Origin: a virus
Direction: 5' to 3' (one strand)
DNA: 64,000 nt
IMG/VR virus record: IMGVR_UViG_3300025073_000048
Span: 5,403 to 69,402 of that record
How positions within the stretch are numbered: the first letter of the stretch is position 1; each line of letters begins with the position of its first letter. Positions 3,364-57,334 of this stretch are shown piece by piece. The notes beneath the pieces were generated by a model that did not search any database, was not told the DNA's origin, and was given only the letters and a program-made list of their open reading frames with translations. Position numbers and translations under genes: made by a program.

Positions 3364-4284
3364 TTATGCCGTTGAATCGTTCGTCCAAGTCAGTTCCGGT
3401 GTCGTACCCTTTTTCCGCACGGAGAACTCCAGGGCCAGTGGGATTTCTGTCTTGCCCTTCACAAACGGCGTCTGATCGGCCCACTGCAGTCCGGGCATCG
3501 TGATTGTGGCGGACATGTTCCCGTTCGTGAACTTCAACTCACCGGACATCCCTGCGATCGCATTCGCATTGGCGTAGAGGGCCGCGAACTCAGTGGATGT
3601 GAACGGGTTGTCCGTGATGAGCGTGACCTTGCGACCACGTGGGCAGATCTGCGTTGGAGTCACGCTGTTCACCCACCGTGGCTGGAGCATGTTGTCGATC
3701 ACCAAGGCAAACTGCTTGATCTCGTACGACACGGAGTCGACCTTGAATGTTCCCTCGTAGAACGTGTAGGGGGCCCGATTCGTCGCGGTGCTCAGCGCAG
3801 GAATCGTCCCGGCCCACGACGCGCCACCTGTCTCCGTCTGGCCCATCACCTCCAAGATCAGGTCAACCAGTTCCTGATCCTCATCGCCAGTGCCAGCAGT
3901 TCCACGCAAAATCGCCCGGTTGGTCTTGCATCCGTCGAATCGAAAGATGCTACCTACCTTGTCGATCAGGATACTGTAGGACGGCAGTGCCTCGGCCAGA
4001 CTGAACACGTCCGCCACCTCGGCGGCACCCAAGATGCGTGGCAAGAGATGGTCATAGTCAACGCCTCCCGGCTGGAGTCCAATGCGGCCGGATATCAGAT
4101 AGCACCCATTACGGGCTCGCTCAACGCTCTCTGATCGCGTGCCCATCATTCCGTTCCCGCCCACCACGCGCTGCTGTTTTCCGACCGTTTCATAAATGAA
4201 ATCGATCGGATTGGACGACGCATCAAACGTGGAGTCCGCGTCGAACGCGAGTCGTGACAACGCTCCCTGCGAGCAGCCTCCCAT
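3364..4284 (-). CDS. Tail tube protein
   Basis: 306 aa; GxxGTRS motif near N terminus, FxGCK and IDNML motifs resemble phage tube families; follows tail terminator-like gene. Confidence 0.7.
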   Translation of the reverse strand: MGGCSQGALSRLAFDADSTFDASSNPIDFIYETVGKQQRVVGGNGMMGTRSESVERARNGCYLISGRIGLQPGGVDYDHLLPRILGAAEVADVFSLAEALPSYSILIDKVGSIFRFDGCKTNRAILRGTAGTGDEDQELVDLILEVMGQTETGGASWAGTIPALSTATNRAPYTFYEGTFKVDSVSYEIKQFALVIDNMLQPRWVNSVTPTQICPRGRKVTLITDNPFTSTEFAALYANANAIAGMSGELKFTNGNMSATITMPGLQWADQTPFVKGKTEIPLALEFSVRKKGTTPELTWTNDSTA

Positions 4285-4292
4285 GTCTCACC

Positions 4293-4748
4293 TCACGTTC
4301 TCGTTTCCAAAACAAACGGGCGGATACACAACGAACACACGTCCAGGTTGGAGTTTTTCAGCAAGCCCCAATCCATCACGTCCTCATGCTCGACCTTGAC
4401 GGTGTAAACCGTGCCTGACGTAACGCCTGAGAGTGCGCCTTTCTCCACGAACTTGCGCCGAATCGACTCTCTCCACACGAGCAGTCTGTCGAGGAGGTAC
4501 ACCGAGTCATTGTCGTTATTGACAACCATCGTGACCGCACACCCGTACCCAATCGATTCACGCTGATTCGTGCCTGGAGAATACCTCTCCCGAGATGGGT
4601 GCACCGTGATTCCGGGGAAGTACATCGACCCGTCGTGTGGACGCCGCCGTATGACGATGCGATTGGTTGGCAGATCCGTCAGGCCCAACGCGACAATAAC
4701 ATCGCGCACACCTTCGAGACACTGCATGTAAATGGACGTTCCGGCCAT
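4293..4748 (-). CDS. Putative tail terminator/completion protein
   Basis: 151 aa between adaptor and tube; synteny. Confidence 0.5.
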   Translation of the reverse strand: MAGTSIYMQCLEGVRDVIVALGLTDLPTNRIVIRRRPHDGSMYFPGITVHPSRERYSPGTNQRESIGYGCAVTMVVNNDNDSVYLLDRLLVWRESIRRKFVEKGALSGVTSGTVYTVKVEHEDVMDWGLLKNSNLDVCSLCIRPFVLETRT

Positions 4749-4752
4749 CCGA

Positions 4753-5931
4753 TCAATCCCCCATCACATTCACATCGCCGATACGGTCTCTGCATTCGTA
4801 GTATGGTGAAACCTGATCGATTCTGCGATCTGAGTCCTTCGCCTCCAGTACGGCACGCTCAGCCAACTGGAGCCGCTCGATGCGATCCTTCGAGTCACGC
4901 TTGGTTAGGATGGCAAACGCCGACTCGCAGAGACGCTGGTAAGCGGTCAGCATCGCGCCTGTCTCCACGTCGATCGGATCGCTCACAGTGAACTTGACAG
5001 ACGAGATTGCCGCAGACGGCGCGGCGTCAAGGACACACGTTGCGCCATTCGACGCCACGGACACAATCGTCCTTTCGTCCGTGTACGTGTTCGTGGTATC
5101 ACCAAGACCACCGAATAGGTTGTCTGGCTCATTCGCGGACGAGCCGAATCGAATGATGCACCCAACGTGCGACTGCGTGAACGAACCCGTCGCAATCGTG
5201 CACGTGGTCGATCCAGCAGTGACAGACACGGTCCCAGTCGAATACTTCTCCGTCACGAGTTGCCTTGGAGATTTTTGGAAGTCGTACCGGAACGTCAATA
5301 CTGAGTCCGGTGGAGGCAGGAACACCAGCGACATGTTGTTGATGTAGTCACTGTCGCCCGTGACGTAGGCGTACTCGGGATCGCCCGGTTCAGCCGGATC
5401 GGACACGGCATCGCGTGACGCCTGATCTGGGAACACAACATCAAGTTCCTCATCCTCGGTGACGTTCCAAAGCTGCCCCATCGTCTTGAATCCGACAGGC
5501 AAAGGATATTCGTCGCGGTACAGCGAGTACACAGTCAATGCGGCTACGTCAGCACCAGGATTCACATTCGCGTCCAGAACAACATGTGTTGAATCGACGT
5601 AGCTTTCAACCGGATAGGCGGCTCCCGCGATCAGGAGCTTTCCGTACGCTGCCCATGACGGAAACGTACCGCCCGACAGCGTGACTAATCGTTCCGACGC
5701 GCCGCCCGTGTGATCATAGGCAATTGTTCCTGTCGCGTACGGCGCAACCGTGGCGAGGTAGCGTGTTCCGTTATACATCACCCACGCATGCGCCGTCTGA
5801 AGTGAACGCAACGCCTCCTTTGCGGCGCGCTTAGCCATCCTCAAAGGGCGACCCGCGCGCTCGTCATTGTAAACGTCGAGAATGTGCTCAACGATGTCTT
5901 GGTATGTCCAGATTTCGGTTGTTGCCATCAC
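4753..5931 (-). CDS. Putative head-tail adaptor with beta-domain insertions
   Basis: N-terminal helices ending AHAW, then YPLPxGF motif typical of adaptor proteins. Confidence 0.55.
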   Translation of the reverse strand: MMATTEIWTYQDIVEHILDVYNDERAGRPLRMAKRAAKEALRSLQTAHAWVMYNGTRYLATVAPYATGTIAYDHTGGASERLVTLSGGTFPSWAAYGKLLIAGAAYPVESYVDSTHVVLDANVNPGADVAALTVYSLYRDEYPLPVGFKTMGQLWNVTEDEELDVVFPDQASRDAVSDPAEPGDPEYAYVTGDSDYINNMSLVFLPPPDSVLTFRYDFQKSPRQLVTEKYSTGTVSVTAGSTTCTIATGSFTQSHVGCIIRFGSSANEPDNLFGGLGDTTNTYTDERTIVSVASNGATCVLDAAPSAAISSVKFTVSDPIDVETGAMLTAYQRLCESAFAILTKRDSKDRIERLQLAERAVLEAKDSDRRIDQVSPYYECRDRIGDVNVMGD

Positions 5932-6143
5932 TGAGCCCTATATTGATCAGGTGCCGACCATGACGCGCGTGTCGCATCGCGTGAGTCACGACTGGTGGAT
6001 CTTGTGTCAACGCCAAATGCTGAAGATCTGCGAACGTCCGATGAAGCGTTCAATGGAGATTCAATATCCACGCCTAGCCCGGCAAACCTCCCGCTGGCGA
6101 ATTTCTTTGCGGACCATTTGTGTGTGGCAAATTTCCACTTCAT
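5928..6143 (-). CDS. Small hypothetical protein
   Basis: 71 aa, 4-nt overlaps with both neighbours. Confidence 0.45.
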   Translation of the reverse strand: MKWKFATHKWSAKKFASGRFAGLGVDIESPLNASSDVRRSSAFGVDTRSTSRDSRDATRASWSAPDQYRAQ

Positions 6144-7141
6144 GAGAACACCACCGCACTCACATTGCCGCTGCTATCGACCGTCACCGTCACGGTAATC
6201 CCACCGTAGCTGTAGACTTCTGTCCCTGTCCCCGCACCGGTCACGTTGCCCACAAGCAGCGGAGCGAGCCTGTCAATGAGCGTGTCGAGGGTGGCTAGGT
6301 TCGTGGCCGTAGCCAGCCCAGAGAGTGCCGTGGCCAGCTCGGCGTTGGTGGGAATGTCGGCCACGGCTGTCGTCAGAGCACCGATCTCCGTGTCAATGTA
6401 ACTGGCAATTGTCACTTGGTTGGCGGCTGTTGCGTACGATGCCGCCGCCAGTGTCCGGGCTTCAAACTCAGCCACTGTTGGAACGTCGGCGATCTCCGCT
6501 GTCGTGGCGTTCCCACTGACGGTGCCAGTGATATTCGCCGTCTGATTGCCTAGGCCCGTTGTGGCGGTCAGCGTGTAGCCGGTCTTGGAAGCCGCTGCGA
6601 CTACCACACCAGCCGTGCCCGTGTCGTCGATGATGTTCTGCATCATCTGCCCGTACGTTCCAACGCCACCGTACGACACCGTTGCCGCCGTCCAGACCCA
6701 TTCTGCGATCGCGGCTGCCACATCCGCTGCGAACGTGGCCGCGTCAATGGCACCAGCCTTCACAGCCTCTGCGGTGATGGCGTCGTTGGCGACTTCGTTT
6801 GTCTTGGAGGCCCACGGAAGCAAGTTCGTTCCATCCCAATAGCCTACGATGGTTCCTTGCAGCACGTCCGTGATCGCCGGTGCACCACCGGCCCGCTTGA
6901 AGATGTCCACCCAGTACCAACCAGCAACCATGTTGCCCGTGATGGCCGGGAACGTGCCGACGTAGAAGTAATTGCCACTCGACTCTGTGAGGGCTATGTC
7001 ATAGTCGGCCCAGTTGGCGGCAGTGACCGCCTCGAAATTCGGCGTGCCAGCGGTATTCCACTGCGTGCTCGTCTTGGAGCGGATCGTTGCGTAGAGTGTC
7101 ACGCCCGTTTCGGTGCCGCGATATTGAATTTCGCCTGCCAT
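6140..7141 (-). CDS. Virion structural/fibre-like protein
   Basis: 333 aa, A/T/G-rich. Confidence 0.55.
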   Translation of the reverse strand: MAGEIQYRGTETGVTLYATIRSKTSTQWNTAGTPNFEAVTAANWADYDIALTESSGNYFYVGTFPAITGNMVAGWYWVDIFKRAGGAPAITDVLQGTIVGYWDGTNLLPWASKTNEVANDAITAEAVKAGAIDAATFAADVAAAIAEWVWTAATVSYGGVGTYGQMMQNIIDDTGTAGVVVAAASKTGYTLTATTGLGNQTANITGTVSGNATTAEIADVPTVAEFEARTLAAASYATAANQVTIASYIDTEIGALTTAVADIPTNAELATALSGLATATNLATLDTLIDRLAPLLVGNVTGAGTGTEVYSYGGITVTVTVDSSGNVSAVVFS

Positions 7142-7142
7142 A

Positions 7143-8426
7143 TTACACCCGCCTTACCATATTTCCGCCGAACACCGGAGCGCCTCCACCGCCGCCAGTC
7201 GCCGCCGAACCTGTCCGTGGCGTACTACCGTATGTCTTGCCGCTCACCACGCACGCATCGCTGGTCGCGTCTTCCGTGCCTGTCGGTGTTCCTGAGTTGG
7301 GGATCTGGAGCGTGCCTTGTCCGGCCACGTCTCCGGTGCCAGTGACCGCCGCCCCGCTATCGGACGGATAGCCGCGTGTGATTCCGTATCGCGTATCGGC
7401 TGCTGACGGCACGGACGGGCCGACAATCGCCCCGCTGTGAGCGGAACCGAGTATGGCGGCACATGCGGCAGACGATTGAAGATTGATTTGTGCGAGGGTT
7501 CCGCCTGATCCCAGCGTTAGCGTTCCGCTGGAGTACCCAATAAATATTCGCCCAGAGCACGCCAGCGCAAGGGATGTGAGATTGAGCGTAGCACCCACCA
7601 GAATGCCCCAGTTGCAATCCGTTGCAGCCGCGAGTGTGCGCGAACCAGTCCACGTCACCGTGCCGCCCGTGGAGTTAGTTGACAGGACAGTTGCTAATCC
7701 TGTCGTAACAGGAACCCCGTCCATCACGAACGTGCCAGTGGTGACTCGCAGTAGGTATCCCGCGTTGATTGTAGGAGTTCCAGTCAGTGTCAGCGTTCCA
7801 CCAGCTGCATACAAGCATCCCGTTCCATTGCCCGTCACTGCGCCCGTCAACTGGCTGGTGGAGCCTGTTCCACTAAATACAATGGCAGGACCGCTGTTAC
7901 CCGCCCCAACCGTCAGCACTGTATCTGCTGTTATGGTTAATGACCCAGTTCCTGTCCCACCGTGCGAAACACATCTGCCCGTACCCGATGATGCGCCCGC
8001 TTCGCAGGCAGTGGCACCTGTGTTCGTGATGGATACTACGCCGGTGCTTGTAATGACAATGGCATATCCCGTAGACGTGTTGGTGACGGCCACGCCAGAT
8101 CCAGGCCCGGTGATTGTCAGATTATCACCGGCACCAACAATCAACATGCCGCTCGTTGACGTGTGGGAGTTGCTGACCGTGCCCACAATGGTCAGGGTGC
8201 CGGTTGGCGTAAGCGTTCCGCCTGCGTTCGTCGCTCCTGATCGCAACAGCGTGCATGTCAGCGTCGTTCCGGTAGGGCTGGTCATCGCCAAGGCGTTCAG
8301 GTCCAGGGTATGTCCCGCTGCGTTTCCGTCCGCGAACGTCGCATCTGTGCCGGTGCCATCGGCTGCGGTGTTCCACGCATTGGCCGCGAGCACTGACCCT
8401 GCTGCTTTGGCGTAATAGATGGTCAT
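7143..8426 (-). CDS. Beta-helix-like fibre/spike protein
   Basis: 427 aa, repetitive GTLT/GT strands. Confidence 0.55.
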   Translation of the reverse strand: MTIYYAKAAGSVLAANAWNTAADGTGTDATFADGNAAGHTLDLNALAMTSPTGTTLTCTLLRSGATNAGGTLTPTGTLTIVGTVSNSHTSTSGMLIVGAGDNLTITGPGSGVAVTNTSTGYAIVITSTGVVSITNTGATACEAGASSGTGRCVSHGGTGTGSLTITADTVLTVGAGNSGPAIVFSGTGSTSQLTGAVTGNGTGCLYAAGGTLTLTGTPTINAGYLLRVTTGTFVMDGVPVTTGLATVLSTNSTGGTVTWTGSRTLAAATDCNWGILVGATLNLTSLALACSGRIFIGYSSGTLTLGSGGTLAQINLQSSAACAAILGSAHSGAIVGPSVPSAADTRYGITRGYPSDSGAAVTGTGDVAGQGTLQIPNSGTPTGTEDATSDACVVSGKTYGSTPRTGSAATGGGGGAPVFGGNMVRRV

Positions 8427-47296: not shown

Positions 47297-48100
47297 CTAT
47301 GAGAGCTTCGGGACTTGCTTCATCAAGTCATCGAAGTTGGGGATTTCGTTTTTGAGAGTCTTCACGAAGTAAGCCAGCGGGCGCTGCGGCCTGGGGGAAA
47401 CCATCCTGGTTCCATTCGCCGCGCCCATCACGGTCGCCAACGAGAGTTTTCCGGTCGTCACGCACCAACCGAGTTTTCGCAGGATCGGGTCCTGAGAACG
47501 AACCCGGAGGATTTGCTGGAGCGCTGCAGCGGTGCTGTGGATTTCTGCTTCCGCCTTTTCCGGCTCCCTGATCTGATCAGATAAATCCTGTTCCTGTTCC
47601 TGATCCTGATCCTGATCCTGGCTTCGAAGGGGCTTCGAAGGGGCTTCATAGCCCCTTCCTGTTTTTGACGGGTCGGACAATGAAAATGACGTGGCATACC
47701 GTTGATAGAAGTCCATAAAGAATGGGGACTTACGCATTGAAAGCCATTCTTTTTCGATGCCCTTGATGCGGTTGTCACGAGGCGATAGAGGCTCCCCAAT
47801 CTGGTGGGAAGCCATCTCACGCACAAAAACATGCTCTGCAGCCCTGTTGTAGGACGCAAAAAGGGCCTCTGATACCCTTCGAAGCCCCTTCGAAGCCCCT
47901 TCATCAGACATCCCTGTTTCATGAAGGAGCAGTGGCCACGGAAGGTAGTACAGACCAATCATATTGGCACTTGGACATGTCATGAGGTACACCGCAATCA
48001 ACTGCGCTTCCATGCCTTTTTCCCTCAGTAATTTTCCCGTTTCACCAGTCCAAAACGCTGGTGAAACTTTGGCATAAGTGCGCATTGAAACATCCTTCAA
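47297..48100 (-). CDS. Phage replication initiator/replisome organiser
   Basis: YAKVSPAFW...LIAVYLMT...IGLYYLP N terminus; QDQDQDQEQE linker; internal 11-bp repeats; upstream of dnaB. Confidence 0.7.
   Translation of the reverse strand: MKDVSMRTYAKVSPAFWTGETGKLLREKGMEAQLIAVYLMTCPSANMIGLYYLPWPLLLHETGMSDEGASKGLRRVSEALFASYNRAAEHVFVREMASHQIGEPLSPRDNRIKGIEKEWLSMRKSPFFMDFYQRYATSFSLSDPSKTGRGYEAPSKPLRSQDQDQDQEQEQDLSDQIREPEKAEAEIHSTAAALQQILRVRSQDPILRKLGWCVTTGKLSLATVMGAANGTRMVSPRPQRPLAYFVKTLKNEIPNFDDLMKQVPKLS
47620..47902. repeat. Two oppositely oriented clusters of 11-bp repeats (GGGGCTTCGAA); candidate ori iterons
   Basis: 47620-47657 GGCTTCGAAGGGGCTTCGAAGGGGCTTC...; 47875-47902 CCCTTCGAAGCCCCTTCGAAGCCCCTTC. 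Confidence 0.6.
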
Positions 48101-49635
48101 GACGCGAACGTGTGCGCCTGCAGTTCCTTACCAAGCGTTTCGTCGCGTGTTGCTTCGGCGGTCAGGATATATACACCGCGTGCCTTCGCGTGATCGTCAA
48201 TGAACTTCCTGTTCCACACGTCCACGCCCTCCCACGCTTCCTGCGGGATGAACAACAGACCGCCATCCCCGACACGCTCCACACCGATCTCAATCGCGAT
48301 GTGCCACTTCTCTGTAGCACTCAGCTCGTGATACGGCGCCCACATGTCCTTCGCTTCCACGTAGCCGTACACACGCTTGTGCACACCCTCGGACACGATC
48401 TTGACCCACTTCGATTCAATCGCGTCAGACAGCACCGAATCCGTAATTCCAGCGGCTTTTCGGTACCTTTCCGCTTTCTCGCGCCGCGACTTCGCCGACT
48501 CCGCAAACGCGGTGACGGAGGCTTGCTTCATGCGCGCATCACGCACACGCACGCCATCCTCCATCGCCAGTTTCGCCGCGTCATACGCTGTCTTGTACTC
48601 AGCGACCTGCTCATCGGTCGGGCGCACGTAGTTGTCCGAGTCAGCGATGACCTTGAGGCACGCCGCACGTCGTTCCGCGTGCGTGCTGATCAGCTCCGCA
48701 CTCTCACGTGCCAGCTTGACGCCCGAGTTAGCCGTATCAATCTCACGATCGCACAATTCGATCGAATGCTGAATCTCGTCCATTTGCTTCAGCAAATCCT
48801 GCTTGTGCTGCACGAGGCCATCGACCTTTCCCTGAGCCTCCGTGACTGCTTTCTTCGCTTCCTCCACGCTGGTAGGGATGTTGCGGGCATCCCAGCGAAT
48901 CAGCTCCTCGCGGGCCTTCTGGGCCTTCTCAACTCGCTCGGCTGCCACCTGCTGGTGCTGGACGGAGTGGGAATACTTGTCCTGGGCTTCAAAGAACGCC
49001 GCCTGCAGCTTCTCGGGGTCGTGCTCCTTGGTCATATCCACCGCGTCGATCTGCTCCTTAATCGACTGCGCCTGCTGCTCATCCTTCTCAGCGGTCTTTT
49101 CCCACGTGCGAGCCTCGGCCTGATAGTCCCGTGCGATCTTCGCCGCCATGTCGATCAGGTCCCCCGACTTGAGGGCCTCGGAAGTCACGATCGTCTCGAA
49201 CTCTTCCGGGTCGAACTCGGGCCGCGTGTCGAACAGGTGCCGATCGGCCTCCACCCCGGTCAGGGCGATCAACGCCTTGATCCGGCGCTTGTCCGCCGCC
49301 ACCTCATCCTTGACGCCAGGGTCCACCAGCGAGGCGAGGTTCAGCTTCCCTTCAAGGTGTTCCACGGCGAACTCACCAGCACAGCGCGTCTGCTTGGGGT
49401 TAATCGCCACGTGTACTCCGAGCCCGTCGATCCGACCTTTCTCCGACCCATGACGCAGCGGCAAACCTCCCTCACCCGCCGCCACGTCCGCCAATGACCC
49501 CACCAGGATCGACTTACCGACTCCATTCGGACCCACAATCGTCGTCACTCCAGGCGACTCCAGCGTGAACTTGAACTTCGGGATCGGGCCCAGGTTTTCG
49601 ACTTCCACAGTTTTCTGATTTTCCTTCACGGTCAC
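48097..49635 (-). CDS. SMC/Rad50-like coiled-coil P-loop ATPase
   Basis: VENLGPI, Walker A GPNGVGKS, long coiled coil, degenerate signature LSATEK; GTG start after GGAG. Confidence 0.7.
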   Translation of the reverse strand: MTVKENQKTVEVENLGPIPKFKFTLESPGVTTIVGPNGVGKSILVGSLADVAAGEGGLPLRHGSEKGRIDGLGVHVAINPKQTRCAGEFAVEHLEGKLNLASLVDPGVKDEVAADKRRIKALIALTGVEADRHLFDTRPEFDPEEFETIVTSEALKSGDLIDMAAKIARDYQAEARTWEKTAEKDEQQAQSIKEQIDAVDMTKEHDPEKLQAAFFEAQDKYSHSVQHQQVAAERVEKAQKAREELIRWDARNIPTSVEEAKKAVTEAQGKVDGLVQHKQDLLKQMDEIQHSIELCDREIDTANSGVKLARESAELISTHAERRAACLKVIADSDNYVRPTDEQVAEYKTAYDAAKLAMEDGVRVRDARMKQASVTAFAESAKSRREKAERYRKAAGITDSVLSDAIESKWVKIVSEGVHKRVYGYVEAKDMWAPYHELSATEKWHIAIEIGVERVGDGGLLFIPQEAWEGVDVWNRKFIDDHAKARGVYILTAEATRDETLGKELQAHTFAS

Positions 49636-49661
49636 TACTCCTAAAACTTCACATGTGTTGA

Positions 49662-50655
49662 AAAACACACTCACAGCGGATGATTCGATCCGCGATTATG
49701 GTTGCTCTCTACCAAGATGGTTCAATCTCCTTGTTTGAATGCGTTCCGAGCACTTGTTTCAGTCGGGTGGCATGACTACGCTCATACTGTTTGGTTCACT
49801 CATCTTTCGAGGCTGCGCTCACGGGAGGTGATTCAATCTGCCGTTCGAAGAACATGTTTCAATCAGCTTGCATGCCTACGTTCACTACATTTGGTTCAAT
49901 CACGAGTCCTGACTACGTTCAAGATCGCTGATTCAATCGGCACGCATGACTGCTCTCGTGATATCTGTTGCAATCTTCAGGTTTGGATGCGCTCAACACT
50001 GCTGGGTATCTGCGGGCTTGACTTCACTCCGCCTTGATGATTCTGTCGCCGGACTTGATTGCGTTCACGACCAATGATTCTCTCCGAACGTGTGACTACG
50101 CTCCTCCCACCTGGTTCAATCTGGGCAGATGGCTGCGCTCACGCCCATTGGTTCTATCCATCGAAATGGCTTCGCTCACGTGGTTTGGTTCGTTCGACTT
50201 CTTAGGCTGCGATCACCTGACGTGTTTCATTCACAGCCCTCTGTCTGCGATCCAGCAACTTGTTTCAGTTCGAGAACTTGGCTGCGATCTCCAAAAATGA
50301 TTCTGTCCGGCGCCATGTCTGCGATCGGCGGTGTTGATTCAGTCACACATTTTGTCTGCGATCGGGCGTTTTGGTTCAGTCTTGCCAGATGGCTACGCTA
50401 CTTCGATCGGATTCAATCCCAAGCTTTGGCTACGTTCCTTGCATATGCTTCAATCAAGTCAACTGGCTGCGATCACACATCCTGTTTCTATCTCAAGGAC
50501 TGTCTTCTCTCAGCGAAATTGTTTCAATCTATCCTTTTGGATACGATCAACCCAATTGCTTCTTTCAGGAATGCTGGCTGCGCTTATACACTGTGGTTCA
50601 CTCACACTACATTTGCTGCGCTCTCACACTCCGATTCAATCGCGTGTGATGGCTA
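49662..50655 (-). repeat. TIGR-like dual-repeat array 1 (~27 units, 37-nt period)
   Basis: + strand alternation TG(G/A/T)TTCAATC-N8-TG(G/A/T)CT(G/A)CG(C/A/T)TC-N8; 10-mer starts at 49681, 49718, 49755, 49792, 49829 ... 50557, 50594, 50632; spacers vary. Confidence 0.9.
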
Positions 50656-52851
50656 ACCCGCGTCCTCATCCGACGCATCTTCCTCGACCTCTTCACGAGT
50701 CTTGCGTGTAATACGCTCTCCCTCGCGCAGATCCTTCAGAGACTTGCCTGTCATCGCAAACGGCCAGTTTGGAATCTCAATAAAGTGCCGGTGATCGCCC
50801 TCGCAGTGCTCGAACACGTAAGGCACGGGCGGCTCCGTCCCGAAGTAATCCACGTGCATGACGTGATGCAAGTGCGACAGGAAGATCTTCACCGCGAACC
50901 GGCGCGCTCGTGCATGCAGGTGCCCTGGAGGCAGCGTACCGTCCTTGTAGTGCTTGTACGCCTCCGTTGTCTTGCCGACCTCGTGCATACGCACTGCCGC
51001 CAACTCAGCGAACTTCTTCTCACCGTTCGCCGCGACCTCCGCGTCCTTCCGTTGACGATAGAGCTGGCCGTAAATAGCTCCCTCTTTGTTCTGCGTCTTC
51101 ACGAAGCACTCCCCAATCTTGAATGCGCAGTTATGGACTGCGATACCATCGGCGACATAGCTTTCGTCCTCTTCTACCTCCAGGTTGTAAACAGGACCAG
51201 TGTATGGAACTGATTCGGGTGGGTTCAACTGAAGCCATACACCGTCTGGTTGCCACTTAGAAACATTCGATGATTTCCATTCAACTGATTCATCACACAG
51301 AATTTGTTTCCCGAATAAATCTCGGTCGTGTACTTCAATGTGATATGCAGTGTTCCCAGCGGGTAGAATCCGCGAGCTAAGACCACTGACGATTCCGCAC
51401 CGCAAAAGCAATTCCTGAATCTGAATAGCAAGAGTCAGGGAAATGGTTCCATAAGAAACTGTCTCTGATGTGTAGTGCCCATTTCCTTCAAATAACCCTC
51501 GCAGCAATGAACGGCACAGAGAAATGTCCATCGACATCCAGTTATTAGGAATATGTTTGTTTGCTGAATAGACACCAAATAGCTTATTGAACGACTCGGA
51601 CAGAAGTGATGAACATGCTTTGACACAGCACCCATCATCACACTTGCTCATAGAAAGGCTGCTATCAAGGCCAAACACATACTTAAACACAGCCCTTACG
51701 TGGTCATGCAAAACAGTTTCTTTTTTGTGAAACGCGAACTGCACAACCCCGTCGCTGCCAGCACACCCCTCTGCGATAAACAATCCGACAAAGCGAGCTA
51801 TTTCTCCGTTAAGCTCTACACGTGTCGGCACACGAGAAGCGACCGGAGATCTATCAAGATAAGATTCACACTCGATCGCCGGGATAAATCCTTCACTTGG
51901 AATAACGGGGACCTTTACCATCCACCCAGGCTGCAATTCAGACGCGTTAATCCAATCCTGTCCGTAATTGAAGTTTTCCTTGGATCTATTCTTCCCTCGC
52001 ACTATCATGCTTACGCCTCCCTGTGAGTAACCAGTTGATTCACCAATTTCACGCAATGTCTTACCCTCTTGGCGCATGCGAATCATCTGCGAAGCGACCT
52101 CATTTCTACCGTTTGGAGTAGAAGCTCGCGTCACCTTAAATCGTTTCCGCCCTTCTCCTTCGTAAAAACACACTGGGACTTTGTCGGCGAGAACAGGGTG
52201 GTTGGGAGTAAGAAGTGGTCCGCGCGCGGCTAGTCCGCGACATGTCAGATGCACCAGCGATCCCGTGAAGTCATTCTCAATGACGTGCGTAACCTTTCTC
52301 CACCGTCCGAGATGAGTCAACACGAGATCACCAATACGCACAGAGTCAATTGGAATAGTCCCTCGCTTTGTGATTACGAGAGTTGTTGGATGACAGCACA
52401 GAATCTTCAGGCGCGCATTCCAGGGACGGCGTGTCTTCGGCTCCCACTTCATCGTTGGGTCGAGTCCAGCAAATCGCCAGAAATGCCCTGCCGTCTTGCA
52501 GCGGGACACGTCCAAGTGAGACAGCAGACCAGCCGAAATGACCGGCCCAATACCGACCTGACTCATCATCCACTGACCCACCGAGTACGTCTCCGAGAAC
52601 GCCTTGAGCGATCGCTTAATCGCGTTCTCCACACGTGTCATTTCATCATTCACCCATTGCAACACTCGCCCCGGTTCCTTCGTCCCAAGCGACCGCAGTT
52701 GACCAGCAGTCGCAATCCGGTACTTCTGCATCGTGTAGTAGTTATCCACCAGAAATCGCACCTGCGCGCGATCCATCAGACCTGCCGCTGTGACTAAGTC
52801 TTTGGTGAGCTTGCGTGCAATTTCGATCGGTTCGTCAAAGGTCTTGTCCAT
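50653..52851 (-). CDS. Tas (TasA-like) Nop-domain RNA-guided DNA-binding protein precursor containing an intein (732 aa; spliced 309 aa)
   Basis: Coiled coil (YYTMQKYRIA), GIGPVISAGLL, FWRFAGLDP, WNARLKIL/CAFKIGECFVK, YGQLYRQRK, HARARRFAVKIFLSHL resemble Nop/IS110-Tnp fold; no RuvC or HNH; flanked by arrays. Confidence 0.8.
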   Translation of the reverse strand: MDKTFDEPIEIARKLTKDLVTAAGLMDRAQVRFLVDNYYTMQKYRIATAGQLRSLGTKEPGRVLQWVNDEMTRVENAIKRSLKAFSETYSVGQWMMSQVGIGPVISAGLLSHLDVSRCKTAGHFWRFAGLDPTMKWEPKTRRPWNARLKILCCHPTTLVITKRGTIPIDSVRIGDLVLTHLGRWRKVTHVIENDFTGSLVHLTCRGLAARGPLLTPNHPVLADKVPVCFYEGEGRKRFKVTRASTPNGRNEVASQMIRMRQEGKTLREIGESTGYSQGGVSMIVRGKNRSKENFNYGQDWINASELQPGWMVKVPVIPSEGFIPAIECESYLDRSPVASRVPTRVELNGEIARFVGLFIAEGCAGSDGVVQFAFHKKETVLHDHVRAVFKYVFGLDSSLSMSKCDDGCCVKACSSLLSESFNKLFGVYSANKHIPNNWMSMDISLCRSLLRGLFEGNGHYTSETVSYGTISLTLAIQIQELLLRCGIVSGLSSRILPAGNTAYHIEVHDRDLFGKQILCDESVEWKSSNVSKWQPDGVWLQLNPPESVPYTGPVYNLEVEEDESYVADGIAVHNCAFKIGECFVKTQNKEGAIYGQLYRQRKDAEVAANGEKKFAELAAVRMHEVGKTTEAYKHYKDGTLPPGHLHARARRFAVKIFLSHLHHVMHVDYFGTEPPVPYVFEHCEGDHRHFIEIPNWPFAMTGKSLKDLREGERITRKTREEVEEDASDEDAG
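51130..52398 (-). mobile_element. Intein (423 aa) with HTH and LAGLIDADG homing endonuclease
   Basis: Block A CCHPTTLVIT, block B LTPNHPV, LAGLIDADG motifs GLFIAEG and GLFEGNG, block F/G VYNLEVEEDESYVADGIAVHN followed by Cys; visibly lower GC. Confidence 0.92.
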
Positions 52852-52885
52852 GTTATGTTTCCAATTCGTGATGACGAAATGCGGT

Positions 52886-53440
<555 letters not shown>

Positions 53441-53460
53441 CTTTGGTCTCCTAAGTAAAA

Positions 53461-53909
53461 GTAAAACGCTCTGGAAGGTTGTTAATTCCGAATACTTGGC
53501 TGCATTCCTTGCCATTGGTTCAATCTCAAATATTGATTGCGATCTGGTTCACTGGTTCACTCACCTTCCATGTCTGCGTTCCGAAACTTTGGTTCAGTCG
53601 CCGAAGGTGGCTACACTCGACCCATTTGATTCAATCAACGGTGGTGAGTTCGTTCGGGGGTTTGTGTCATTCATATCTACGACTTCGATCCAGGGATCTG
53701 TTTCAATCTGACTGATAGTCTGCGATCTTCAGATATGGTTCTGTCTGGTCTTCTGTCTCGTTCGAGCTGAATGATCATCTGGCGATGTGACTACGATCAA
53801 GCGGTTTGATTCATTCCTGCTTGATGCCTGCGATCGGCTGCATTGGTTCATTCAAACGATCTGTCTGCGATCTGGATATTTGGTTCCATCACTAACAATG
53901 GCTACGCTC
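53461..53909 (-). repeat. TIGR-like dual-repeat array 2 (~12 units)
   Basis: Same repeats: 10-mer at 53516, 53553, 53590, 53627 ... 53807, 53844, 53881; last 11-mer TGGCTACGCTC at 53899-53909. Confidence 0.88.
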
Positions 53910-53911
53910 CA

Positions 53912-55078
53912 TCACTCAGCAGGAAACGTTTTCAGCTTCTGATCTCGGTACTCACAAGCAAGCGAGTACAAGTCCTGATCCATCGTTTCCTTGTTGTCGA
54001 AGATGTACGAGCGCCAGACCTGACGGGCCTGCTCCAGCGTGGCCGTCTTAAACAGCTCGAAATGGTACTCGCGCAGGTCCTCGGGAATCTCCTCGATCAC
54101 TTCCGGCTCTGACTCCGACTTCTTTGTCTCCTTTTTCTCTTCCTCCTGCGGTTCAGAAGTCGTCGTCGATTCCTTTTCCTTTTTCTCTTCCTCCTGCGGT
54201 TCCGACTTCGCCGTCTCCTTTTCCTTCTTCGAGCCCTTTTCCCGTTTCAACTCCTTCGCCGCGCGCTCCGACTTCGACTCGCCCGGCGTTTTAGCGGTTC
54301 CCTCCGTTTCGACCTGCTGAAACGCAAACCAATCCTCGGGCTTGCTCATCCCATCCTTGAGGCTCGTGTAGATCTTGCGCAGCTCCAGCATGTGCTGCTC
54401 CGTCAGCGACTCCGTCTTTCTCTGCGCACGTGTTTCAATCATCTCCGTCGTGATGCCGAACTGCTTGAACACCTCCAGCATCTTGCGGACGCGGTCCACC
54501 AACGGTTCCTTGTGGCCTTCGGTCAGCGTCTTCTCGCACTGCTCGACCGCCAGATCCTGCACGTCCTTGGGAATCACGGACAAGATGCAACTCCGTTTGC
54601 GCCGGGCCCCGACGTTTAGGATCATCTCGGCGATGTCACGGGGATCTTTCAACAGGTAAGACCCTTGCTTCGTGTGGCGCACGTGAGGAACCGTGAACGT
54701 GGTCGCGGATCGCACGTTCGTCTCCATGTCCCACGCATACGCCTCACAAACGCTTTCCCCGTTCGCCTGACTGAGTTCGCGAATCCCGTAGTCCAGATTC
54801 CCCCAGCCCTGCGCCATCGCTTCGGCGAGCCGGATAGACGGCCCTGTGACCTGTTCCTTGCCACGTGGGTACGAGTACATACTGACCTCGGCCAGACCAC
54901 GCCGCTGACACGCGGTTGTGATACGTGAGATCGACTCGTTCACATCGCGGGGGAATCGCTTGGCGATAACGATCATCGCCTGCACTTCCTGCGCCTGCCG
55001 ACTCGCGGCCACCTCCATGAGGTTGTGCTGGCCACGCTTCTCTTGGTCTTCGATATGGGTACTGAGTTCGTTGCTCAT
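53912..55078 (-). CDS. Putative single-strand annealing/recombination protein
   Basis: AKRFPRD, YSYPRG, GPSIRLAE, WGN, AWDMETN, ARR.R.CI family typically paired with YqaJ exonucleases. Confidence 0.6.
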   Translation of the reverse strand: MSNELSTHIEDQEKRGQHNLMEVAASRQAQEVQAMIVIAKRFPRDVNESISRITTACQRRGLAEVSMYSYPRGKEQVTGPSIRLAEAMAQGWGNLDYGIRELSQANGESVCEAYAWDMETNVRSATTFTVPHVRHTKQGSYLLKDPRDIAEMILNVGARRKRSCILSVIPKDVQDLAVEQCEKTLTEGHKEPLVDRVRKMLEVFKQFGITTEMIETRAQRKTESLTEQHMLELRKIYTSLKDGMSKPEDWFAFQQVETEGTAKTPGESKSERAAKELKREKGSKKEKETAKSEPQEEEKKEKESTTTSEPQEEEKKETKKSESEPEVIEEIPEDLREYHFELFKTATLEQARQVWRSYIFDNKETMDQDLYSLACEYRDQKLKTFPAE

Positions 55079-56079
55079 TGCTTGGTCTTGCGCTCCAGAA
55101 GTCGTTCATACGCCCGACGCTTCACCTGTCCGACACGTGCGCGGACCTCTTCAACGTCAGACTCCAGGTAAAGTGATTCCTTCACGAGTAACCGGCGCAG
55201 TTCCTTCTCGCCACGCGGGAAACGGCCCAGCTCAGCAGAACCCATCGCAGACAGAATGCGATTGCGAGTTTCGTCGCGCTGCACTTCCAGCTCCGAGATC
55301 TCCTCGCCGAGCATCTTGTACCGCAACCACCACTGCAGTTCCTCGTCACCGAGTTGAACAACGGTGTTCGCCTGCAGACCATTCACAGAAGTGATCAACT
55401 CACGAGTCCGAGGATGCGTCCAGTTCGGCTCTGGAGGGCACCCATCAGCGATCCGCTCGCACAGTTCCTTCTCGGCCTCCGCGATCGCTTCAATCAGGTC
55501 GTCATTGCGCTGGATCGGATACACCCGCAGCGTGAAGATGCCGAACATCACCGCCACGTCCACCTGATCCACGCCCATCACAGCCATCTGCTGCTGCGCC
55601 TGAAACAGAGTGTCATCAGGCACCAGATCCGTGCCCTCCTGGCCGTACTTAGAGTCATCGTCCTCTGCGTACATGCGCTGCGTGGTAGCCTTCGTCTCCA
55701 GCAGACGGCGATGCTCCGACAACACGATCGCGTCCGGTGTCGCAGTCATATAGGGCAGCGTCGGGTGGATGAACATCCTGTCATTCTCCACGCACTGCAC
55801 GCCCAGCTCGTCCGAGTATTCCTTCACGATCACCGACTGCATCCGGCGCCCACGCCGCAGTCGCTTCGTCTGATCGTCATCGAACTGAATCTCACGTATC
55901 CTGCGCGCCGCGAGATACAGATCCAAACTCGTGCGATAATTGCTGCGATTGCACGCGGCAGCCGCATCACTCGCACCAATCCACAACTGCCGTCCTGGCT
56001 CGTAGTGCCGTCCCTCCAACCACATCGGGTCGCCTTCCTTCGGACCCTCGATCGGTACATGCTGCTGTGTCACCATCAA
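55075..56079 (-). CDS. YqaJ/lambda-exonuclease-like recombination nuclease
   Basis: IGASDAAA, ATPDA, LLETKAT, QAQQQM. Confidence 0.85.
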   Translation of the reverse strand: MMVTQQHVPIEGPKEGDPMWLEGRHYEPGRQLWIGASDAAAACNRSNYRTSLDLYLAARRIREIQFDDDQTKRLRRGRRMQSVIVKEYSDELGVQCVENDRMFIHPTLPYMTATPDAIVLSEHRRLLETKATTQRMYAEDDDSKYGQEGTDLVPDDTLFQAQQQMAVMGVDQVDVAVMFGIFTLRVYPIQRNDDLIEAIAEAEKELCERIADGCPPEPNWTHPRTRELITSVNGLQANTVVQLGDEELQWWLRYKMLGEEISELEVQRDETRNRILSAMGSAELGRFPRGEKELRRLLVKESLYLESDVEEVRARVGQVKRRAYERLLERKTKQ

Positions 56080-56760: not shown

Positions 56761-56789
56761 AATGTAGGAAAGTTCCGCCATTGAGTCAA
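56761..56789 (-). promoter_or_regulatory. Strong sigma70-like promoter for the replication/TIGR operon
   Basis: TTGACT-N17-TACATT on minus strand. Confidence 0.7.
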
Positions 56790-56799
56790 GGAGAATTCC

Positions 56800-57081
56800 C
56801 TAGTCGGGCTTCTTTTTCGCCCGCCCTGGCTGACGCAAGAGTTTGGAGGGGCAGACGTTAAGCGATTTTGCAATATTTTCCAAAACAGGTAGCGTCGGAG
56901 AGTTCCTACCCCGTTCCAGGTCGGAAACGTAGCTGCGCGGTACTCTCATCTTCGCGCTCAAATCGTCCTGAGTCATGTTCGCCGACTCGCGCAACACTCG
57001 GAGATTCTCGCGGAAATACCGCTGCAACCGAGTGAACCGTTGACATGAGACACGCTTCAATATCGCATTTTTCTTTAACAT
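56800..57081 (-). CDS. XRE-family HTH repressor
   Basis: LRVLRESANMTQDDLSAKM...YVSDLERGRNSPTL. Confidence 0.85.
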   Translation of the reverse strand: MLKKNAILKRVSCQRFTRLQRYFRENLRVLRESANMTQDDLSAKMRVPRSYVSDLERGRNSPTLPVLENIAKSLNVCPSKLLRQPGRAKKKPD

Positions 57082-57172
57082 GGTCAGAAGTGTAACGCGA
57101 ACAGACCGACTAAGCAAACGACACGGAACCAAAAACACCACCGCTCACCTAGCATCTTCGACACAAGAAATG

Positions 57173-57208
57173 AAAAAACCCCGTGGCCCGGTCCTCCGAA
57201 CCACGAGG
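57173..57208 (-). terminator. Rho-independent terminator ending the late block
   Basis: CCTCGTGGTTCGG-AGGA-CCGGGCCACGGGG-TTTTTT. Confidence 0.7.
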
Positions 57209-57334
57209 TGATCTTCATCCAACGGGGAGTGCTATTTGTTACCGCTTCATCGTGGCTTGGCCCTCCTGGAAACAATCGATTACCAAGTTCAACACGTATG
57301 AAGAACCGCACATTGCGGATCTTGCTCAATCAAC

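Follow-up and report, generated by a model that had tools for sequence, protein, structure and literature searches.

A second TIGR guide array lies between phage genes upstream of an intein-bearing tas gene

The IMG/VR virus record IMGVR_UViG_3300025073_000048 is 69,402 bp long, is rated 100% complete by CheckV, and is present in DNA runs from groundwater and soil metagenomes. We analyzed positions 5,403 to 69,402 of this record, a stretch of 64,000 nucleotides that we refer to as the window. Two arrays of short alternating repeats, called array 1 and array 2 here, lie on the minus strand of the window on either side of a tas gene, and all genes around array 2 are on the minus strand as well. 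Read along that strand, the features of the locus are as follows.

57178-57209, minus strand: strong terminator-like hairpin (14 pairs and a T run), a candidate end of the preceding unit
56761-56789, minus strand: promoter-like site TTGACT-17-TACATT, the nearest consensus site upstream of array 2 on this strand
55075-56079, minus strand: gene for a YqaJ/RecE-like recombination exonuclease (PF09588, 8e-19; phrog_434), overlapping the next gene by 4 nt
53912-55078, minus strand: 388-aa gene (phrog_3657), with its TGA stop codon at 53914-53912, 2 nt before array 2
53467-53909, minus strand: array 2, 12 units and a terminal cut-short edge repeat, GAGCG (53471-53467)
53441-53466, minus strand: junction of array 2 and the Imm5-like gene, T-rich, with AGGAG at 53452-53448 and the ATG at 53440
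52886-53440, minus strand: Imm5-like gene (184 aa; PF21805, 1.1e-9), between array 2 and tas
50653-52851, minus strand: tas, TasA-like, with a Nop domain only; stop codon at 50655-50653
52399-52851, 51130-52398 and 50656-51129, minus strand: N-extein, intein (423 aa) and C-extein of tas, delimited by alignment and Pfam
49666-50660, minus strand: array 1, 27 units built on the two consensus repeats of array 2
48097-49629, minus strand: 510-aa gene after array 1, with weak matches to AAA/ABC-type ATPases

The start of tas (52851) is 616 nt from the end of array 2, on the same strand and with one gene between. Array 1 lies directly downstream of tas, and the tas stop codon falls within the cut-short edge repeat that opens this array. 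At its other end, array 1 stops about 37 nt before the 510-aa gene, whose GTG start follows an AGGAG sequence about 37 nt past the last array 1 spacer. The 388-aa gene had been called SSAP-like in the initial annotation, a label for a putative annealing protein that could not be confirmed: the gene matches no Pfam family, its PHROG is of unknown function, and only a weak Atlas lead points to Rad52-type proteins.

Parsed by coordinate, array 2 runs from 53909 to 53467 on the minus strand and consists of 12 dual-repeat units of 35-37 nt, with a length of 37 nt in 8 of the 12 units and of 35-36 nt in the remainder. The units start at 53909, 53872, 53835, 53798, 53763, 53727, 53690, 53655, 53618, 53581, 53544, and 53507, and measure 37, 37, 37, 35, 36, 37, 35, 37, 37, 37, 37, and 36 nt, respectively. 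A unit opens with an 11-nt edge repeat (GAnCGnAGnCA) and has a 10-nt loop repeat (GAnTGAAnCA) in its middle; spacer A lies between the two repeats and spacer B follows the loop, each with a consensus length of 8 nt. Both repeats open with GA in 11 of 11 cases each. Across the 11 full-length edges, positions G1, A2, G5, A7, and C10 do not vary, and the same is true of G1, A2, A6, and A10 across 11 loops. The terminal CA has its penultimate C in 11 of 11 edges and 10 of 11 loops, and its last A in 9 of 11 and 11 of 11, respectively. Spacers are 8 nt long in 21 of 24 cases, and all 24 are distinct. The first edge repeat of the array is full-length, the last is cut short to GAGCG, and no terminator follows it.

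These results agree with the initial annotation, which had placed about 12 units between the upstream stop codon (53912) and the SD sequence of the Imm5-like gene and had recognized in them the repeats of array 1; the two consensus repeats are identical. The irregular units that it had picked out around 53656-53679, 53772, and 53480 are units 7, 4, and 12. Unit 7 has two 7-nt spacers (53679-53673 and 53662-53656), the loop of unit 4 is shortened to 8 nt (53779-53772), and the loop of unit 12 is degenerate (53488-53479); the edge of unit 5 is 10 nt long. These four of the 12 units may be without a usable guide. Array 1 also has irregular units, namely units 18 and 23. The latter (49846-49821, minus strand) is 26 nt long, with a short edge that passes straight into the loop and no spacer A.

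Motif counts in the window single out the same two regions. The loop pattern, allowing at most one mismatch, has 21 matches compared to 3.95 expected, and the largest count among 100 shuffles was 8. Seven of the matches are in array 2, 11 are in array 1, and three are elsewhere, and the 18 matches in the arrays are all on the minus strand. The edge pattern has 20 matches compared to 8.1 expected, with four in array 2 and six in array 1. Tandem Repeats Finder reported neither array because the units are too divergent, and motif searches and the coordinate parse were used instead. The array 2 region is letter-identical in contigs of four further DNA runs (X3, X5, X7, and X9), and these independent contigs indicate that the array is not an assembly artefact. 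No variant and no gain or loss of a unit was seen among them; since all four represent the same phage, this is uninformative about array dynamics. The array 2 RNA has no significant fold (z -0.9). Array 2 is a second TIGR guide array, of the same repeat family as array 1 and on the same strand as tas.

CRISPR arrays provide a familiar parallel, as in Cas12a systems, in which the effector itself cuts the repeat-spacer transcript into unit guides. TIGR systems differ from CRISPR in protein fold and in the guide, which has two spacers pairing with opposite DNA strands, and to our knowledge no adaptation genes are present in them. According to the accessible text of Faure et al. (2025, Science, PMC12045711), TIGR arrays consist of two alternating 8-12-nt repeats with spacers of about 9 nt. 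The same source describes cut-short terminal edge repeats and a rho-independent terminator as typical rather than defining, and allows for divergence of the box D and box C motifs if edge and loop diverge together. The arrays of the window share with these dual-repeat arrays alternating repeats of 10-11 nt, two short spacers per unit, and a period near 36 nt. They also share a position on both sides of a Nop-domain gene in a phage (12 and 27 units), cut-short terminal edge repeats in part (the first of array 1 and the last of array 2), and edge and loop repeats with matching first and last letters (GA...CA), which a symmetric dimer would require. In contrast to the arrays of Faure et al., the period here is 37 nt rather than 36 nt, an Imm5-like gene lies between the upstream array and tas, and neither array ends in a predicted terminator, each continuing into the next gene. 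The GA...CA repeats of array 2 differ as well from the UG/CCA of TasR arrays. An upstream second array with the same repeats is a known layout, because arrays upstream of tas, downstream of it, or on both sides have been described (Xu et al. 2026, bioRxiv 10.64898/2026.09.09.750476, accessible text).

The SpTIGR-TasH system of Salicola phage CGphi29 (NC_020844; PDB 9w03, 21kl) resembles the locus in other respects. Its spacers are 8+8 nt, as here, or 16 nt in total (PMC12045711, accessible text), its edge repeats end in AGCCA and its loop repeats in AACCA, like the repeats here, and the Tyr/His pair with which its effector processes pre-tigRNA is conserved by alignment. Unlike the arrays of the window, SpTIGR is a single array with a strong terminator hairpin at its end. 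SpTasH has an N-terminal HNH nuclease that is missing from the window protein, which is TasA-like, and the profile similarity of the two proteins is distant (1.7e-8).

Two related phages have an array at the corresponding place. In L004 (IMGVR_UViG_3300009285_000883), 16 units counted by eye lie between the stop codon of a 91-aa ORF and the Imm5-like gene (5530-5967); in L086 (WBZR01000428.1), about 10 units, also counted by eye, lie between the stop codon of a 116-aa ORF and the Imm5-like gene (~3953-4460). The gene before the array differs in all three phages (388-aa gene, 91-aa ORF, and 116-aa ORF), and the gap from stop codon to array is 2-3 nt throughout. The other end of the array, where GAGCG is followed by a T-rich stretch and AGGAG, differs little between the window and L086, which have a 14-mer in common, and is similar in L004. 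No conserved block was found among the three phages in the 120 nt upstream of the arrays, and neither L004 nor L086 has a counterpart of any array 2 spacer. Proteins of the flanking genes are 55-78% identical to those of the relatives; a DnaD-like gene aligns only in part, with 41% identity. Among 81 loci, the Imm5-like gene was found in two, the window and L004; L086, which is outside this set, is a third phage with the gene. In nine other loci with an upstream array, the array abuts tas directly (gaps of 2-72 nt), and a gene intervenes only in the window and L004. L004 has, in addition, a third array of two units (7124-7200) between two small ORFs downstream of tas. This array starts in a stop codon and ends with GAGCG and a T run just before the next ATG.

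A tight fit of arrays to the ends of genes is found beyond these phages. Of 50 arrays detected in 42 related viral loci, 31 have their start between -21 and +12 nt from the stop codon of an ORF on the same strand, compared to 909 of 8400 trials (10.8%) with random positions. This count took arrays of at least five units. Loci whose first 300 nt of tas repeat those of an earlier locus were removed, which reduced the set from 81 to 74; loci without this loop motif were left out, as were L001-L003 (the phage's own genome), L005 (the same record as L004), and L020 (the same arrays as L016). The array detector was based on the loop motif and a PWM and misses degenerate first units and two-unit arrays. 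For example, it found 14 units in the upstream array of L004, missing the first two. A detector based on autocorrelation gave false positives in coding repeats and was dropped. Within the same Tas clade, some arrays end in clear terminator hairpins, e.g., in L031, L054, and L081, so read-through from an array into the next gene is not a general rule.

In the window, array 2 is closely embedded among its neighbors. Between its terminal GAGCG and the ATG of the Imm5-like gene lie 26 nt that include AGGAG, and the last 105 nt of the array contain no hairpin or terminator (z +0.8). On the minus strand, no sigma-70-like site was found from 56761 to 47000 by a scan that covers the sigma-70 consensus only, and a simple scan found no terminator-like site from 56528 to 47000. 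The terminator-like hairpin and the promoter-like site at 57209-56761 have counterparts in L004 in the same relative place (hairpin at 619-652 and promoter-like site at 988-1016; TTGAC(T/C)-17-TACATT). Judging from its sequence, this pair likely marks the start of an operon that includes both arrays. The pair sits downstream of a gene for a helix-turn-helix regulator (56800-57141). It is plausible that array 2 is inside a transcription unit, as the short gaps, the scans, and the conserved layout indirectly suggest. The initial annotation had proposed that the arrays are co-transcribed within the operon, such that guide processing would also cut the polycistronic message and couple guide biogenesis to operon regulation. 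The first part of this proposal has the indirect support just described and the second, cutting of the transcript by Tas, is supported by analogy with the system of the Salicola phage; that the cutting regulates neighboring genes is speculation.

The tas gene is contained in a 766-codon frame (52953-50653), and the starts of its orthologues point to the ATG at 52851 as its most likely start codon. Its family comprises 2697 homologues, mostly of 270-330 aa. A phmmer search of the PDB with the tas product gave TasR 9mty, the TasR complex of Faure et al. 2025, at 1.4e-7 across both exteins and TasH at 0.0024. A profile of 30 homologues improved these scores to 1.6e-20 for 9mty and 1.7e-8 for TasH, and gave the IS621 bridge recombinase at 3e-5. 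We built an AlphaFold model of the intein-free Tas of L004, which is 77-78% identical to the window protein in both exteins. The model is all-helical (pLDDT 86, pTM 0.82), and its ten best PDB matches in Foldseek are all TasH or TasR (E 4e-7 to 7e-6; TM up to 0.58 by query), in keeping with a Nop fold that has a coiled-coil dimer arm. The modeled chain has no N-terminal nuclease domain and opens directly with long helices. No HNH or RuvC family was found by Pfam in the tas product, and there is no room for a nuclease domain, since the TasR match begins at profile position 42 compared to chain residue 117. Because sequence and fold match TasR and TasH and the N-terminal nuclease domain is lacking, the tas product is classified, from its sequence and the model of its orthologue, as a TasA-type effector, a predicted Nop-domain protein without a nuclease. 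The TasA type binds DNA under RNA guidance and represses transcription (Xu et al. 2026, bioRxiv 10.64898/2026.09.09.750476, accessible text).

Processing of TIGR transcripts needs Tas, and the accessible text of Faure et al. (PMC12045711) attributes the cutting, as a supposition, to a host RNase. SpTasH itself was reported to cut within the edge repeat, without metal, by means of Y289 and H296 (PMC13421893; Xu et al. 2026, accessible text). In the C-extein of the window protein, the stretch PPVPYVFEHCEGDHRHF supplies the aligned counterparts of these two residues of SpTasH (NC_020844), namely its Y and its first H, and both columns are at least 90% conserved in 30 tas relatives. In the L004 model, the loop that contains the pair (residues 259-266) has low confidence, as expected for a flexible loop. 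By analogy with SpTasH, it is plausible that Tas would cut the array transcript via the aligned Tyr/His pair.

The intein (51130-52398, minus strand; 423 aa) has a LAGLIDADG homing endonuclease domain and interrupts the Nop domain of tas. Its first residue is Cys, its last two are His-Asn, and the residue after it is Cys. The tas of L004 has no intein, and the alignment gap is exactly 423 residues, between the L and the C of a conserved LCAFK stretch; the Tas of L086 carries the intein with 81% identity. Fourteen further protein clusters cover at least 76% of the intein-bearing Tas. Among named phages, a Megablast search with 49600-55100 gave no match, and a tblastn search with a Tas orthologue gave one distant match, in Microcystis phage Mvi-JY20 (24.5% identity).

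Array 1 and array 2 share no spacer. No spacer pair common to the two arrays had been seen by eye in the initial annotation, and in an all-against-all comparison the 77 spacers are all distinct. Thirty spacer pairs lie within two mismatches of each other, which is at chance level (24.7 expected), and the closest pair of guides differs at 6 of 16 positions. The 38 guides with both spacers were used to search for targets in both strand arrangements, with gaps of 0-2 and at most two mismatches, and with re-paired guides as controls. In the phage's own 69-kb genome, no guide has a target at 0 or 1 mismatch, and at two mismatches there are 6 and 5 matches, compared to 5.75 and 5.65 in the controls. 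In a related complete 71.6-kb phage, L086, and L087, there are no matches above controls; the one match with a single mismatch compares to a control mean of 0.6. By our own estimate, a 16-nt target is expected many times by chance in large collections. As no target was found in these genomes for any of the 38 guides, the guide function of the arrays is deduced from family membership only. Unit 18 of array 1 (50029-49995, minus strand) resembles a guide in the downstream array of L004 (~7490-7530), with an identical spacer A and one difference in spacer B, and the upstream arrays of L004 and L086 have their leading guide in common. Guides kept between phages may point to conserved targets; none were found in the phage genomes searched.

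We favor the interpretation, with a probability of roughly 0.6, that array 2 is a working array of a phage TIGR-TasA system that it shares with array 1, and that it is carried on a long early transcript and cut by Tas into guides. The arrangement of the locus makes one long early transcript the most likely source of array 2 RNA. Beginning near 56761, this transcript would take in the exonuclease and 388-aa genes, array 2, the Imm5-like gene, tas, and array 1, and continue past array 1 into the ATPase, helicase-loader, and DnaB genes. Once Tas is made and its intein is spliced out, Tas dimers would bind each array unit. Cuts made inside the edge repeats via the Tyr/His pair would then yield guides of about 37 nt with 8+8-nt spacers. 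Provided that the operon RNA includes the arrays, the known mechanism implies that this RNA is cut. As a side effect, cuts at both array 2 and array 1 would break the transcript and detach the Imm5-like/tas message from the genes before and after it.

Array 2 could instead be a real array with its own promoter, sited either in the last part of the upstream gene or within the first units. In that case, guide production would not depend on the operon message, and the message for the Imm5-like gene and tas would begin within array 2 or past it. Xu et al. (2026; bioRxiv 10.64898/2026.09.09.750476), in the accessible text, call sequence alone insufficient for separating co-transcription from separate promoters, our scan detects sigma-70-type consensus sites only, and in L086 a weak promoter-like site precedes the array by about 380 nt; each of these is compatible with a dedicated promoter. 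Such a promoter is nonetheless unlikely, given that the scan found no promoter-like site in about 2.8 kb of upstream sequence on the minus strand and that the three phages have no conserved block in the 120 nt before the array. Moreover, the genes that precede the array differ in the three phages, yet the gap between stop codon and array is always 2-3 nt.

Even a genuine array may have lost its use, and array 2 could be a decaying or functionless duplicate of array 1 that gives no useful guides. The irregularity of 4 of its 12 units would be expected from decay, as would the lack of targets in the phage genomes searched and of a guide common to the arrays of relatives. The repeats, however, are as well conserved as those of array 1, which itself has irregular units (18 and 23). 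All three phages of the lineage have an array in exactly this place, with 10-16 units, turned-over spacers, and a conserved junction with the Imm5-like gene, and L004 and L086 retain the same leading guide. Decay or redundancy is therefore improbable in our view. We give almost no weight to the notion that the periodicity reflects chance, a coding repeat, or another structured RNA and not a guide array. The silence of Tandem Repeats Finder and the spurious ORFs that cross array 2 could be cited for it. They are set against two alternating motifs at a fixed spacing of 37 nt, far above shuffles, an architecture that matches published SpTIGR (8-nt spacers and repeats ending in CCA), the presence of a Tas gene beside the array, and the lack of an Rfam match or a fold inside it.

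Returning to the shared early transcript that we favor, we tentatively raise the idea, which we consider doubtful, that in this lineage TIGR arrays double as Tas-dependent cutting sites between cistrons of an early recombination and replication operon. The two arrays in the window and the three in L004 each start at a stop codon and end a short distance upstream of the ribosome-binding site that follows. [quoted passage not shown] The last unit of array 2, the final edge of which is cut short, may stay on the Imm5-like/tas message just upstream of the ribosome-binding site, and a Tas dimer on this retained unit could tune translation of the Imm5-like gene and tas. If this idea were true, guide production would set the timing or dosage of neighboring phage genes.

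Array 2 fits the published description of TIGR arrays and adds no new principle to it. What is unusual is that, in three phages, the array sits between unrelated phage genes and an Imm5-like gene precedes tas; the lack of terminators and the intein in tas are unusual as well. In the accessible texts of the two main TIGR papers, we found no mention of a gene between array and tas, of arrays between unrelated phage genes, or of an intein that splits the RNA-binding domain. The accessible text of Xu et al. 2026 describes no arrays between unrelated phage genes with near-zero gaps and contains the words "intein" and "Imm" zero times. "Intein" is likewise found zero times in the accessible text of Faure et al.; its supplements (table S1 and fig. 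S4) or TIGRSafari may already list the contig or the layout. One general review, in its accessible part, contains both "intein" and "tigRNA". The first description of TIGR-Tas systems dates from as recently as 2025, and this locus offers a clear natural example of arrays that have no space for promoters or terminators of their own. It is therefore suited to RNA-end work on whether tas and the guides share a transcript, a question raised by the authors of the TIGRFinder survey (Xu et al. 2026, accessible text).

Further repeats lie within the coding sequences on either side of array 2. Tandem Repeats Finder reported a 48-nt tandem repeat at 54129-54230 (2.2 copies, 85% matches) inside the 388-aa gene. 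The Imm5-like gene has a long alanine-rich tract encoded by a GCAGCA repeat (52977-53152). No Rfam family matched inside either array, and all Rfam matches fall in this alanine-codon repeat, below the curated threshold.
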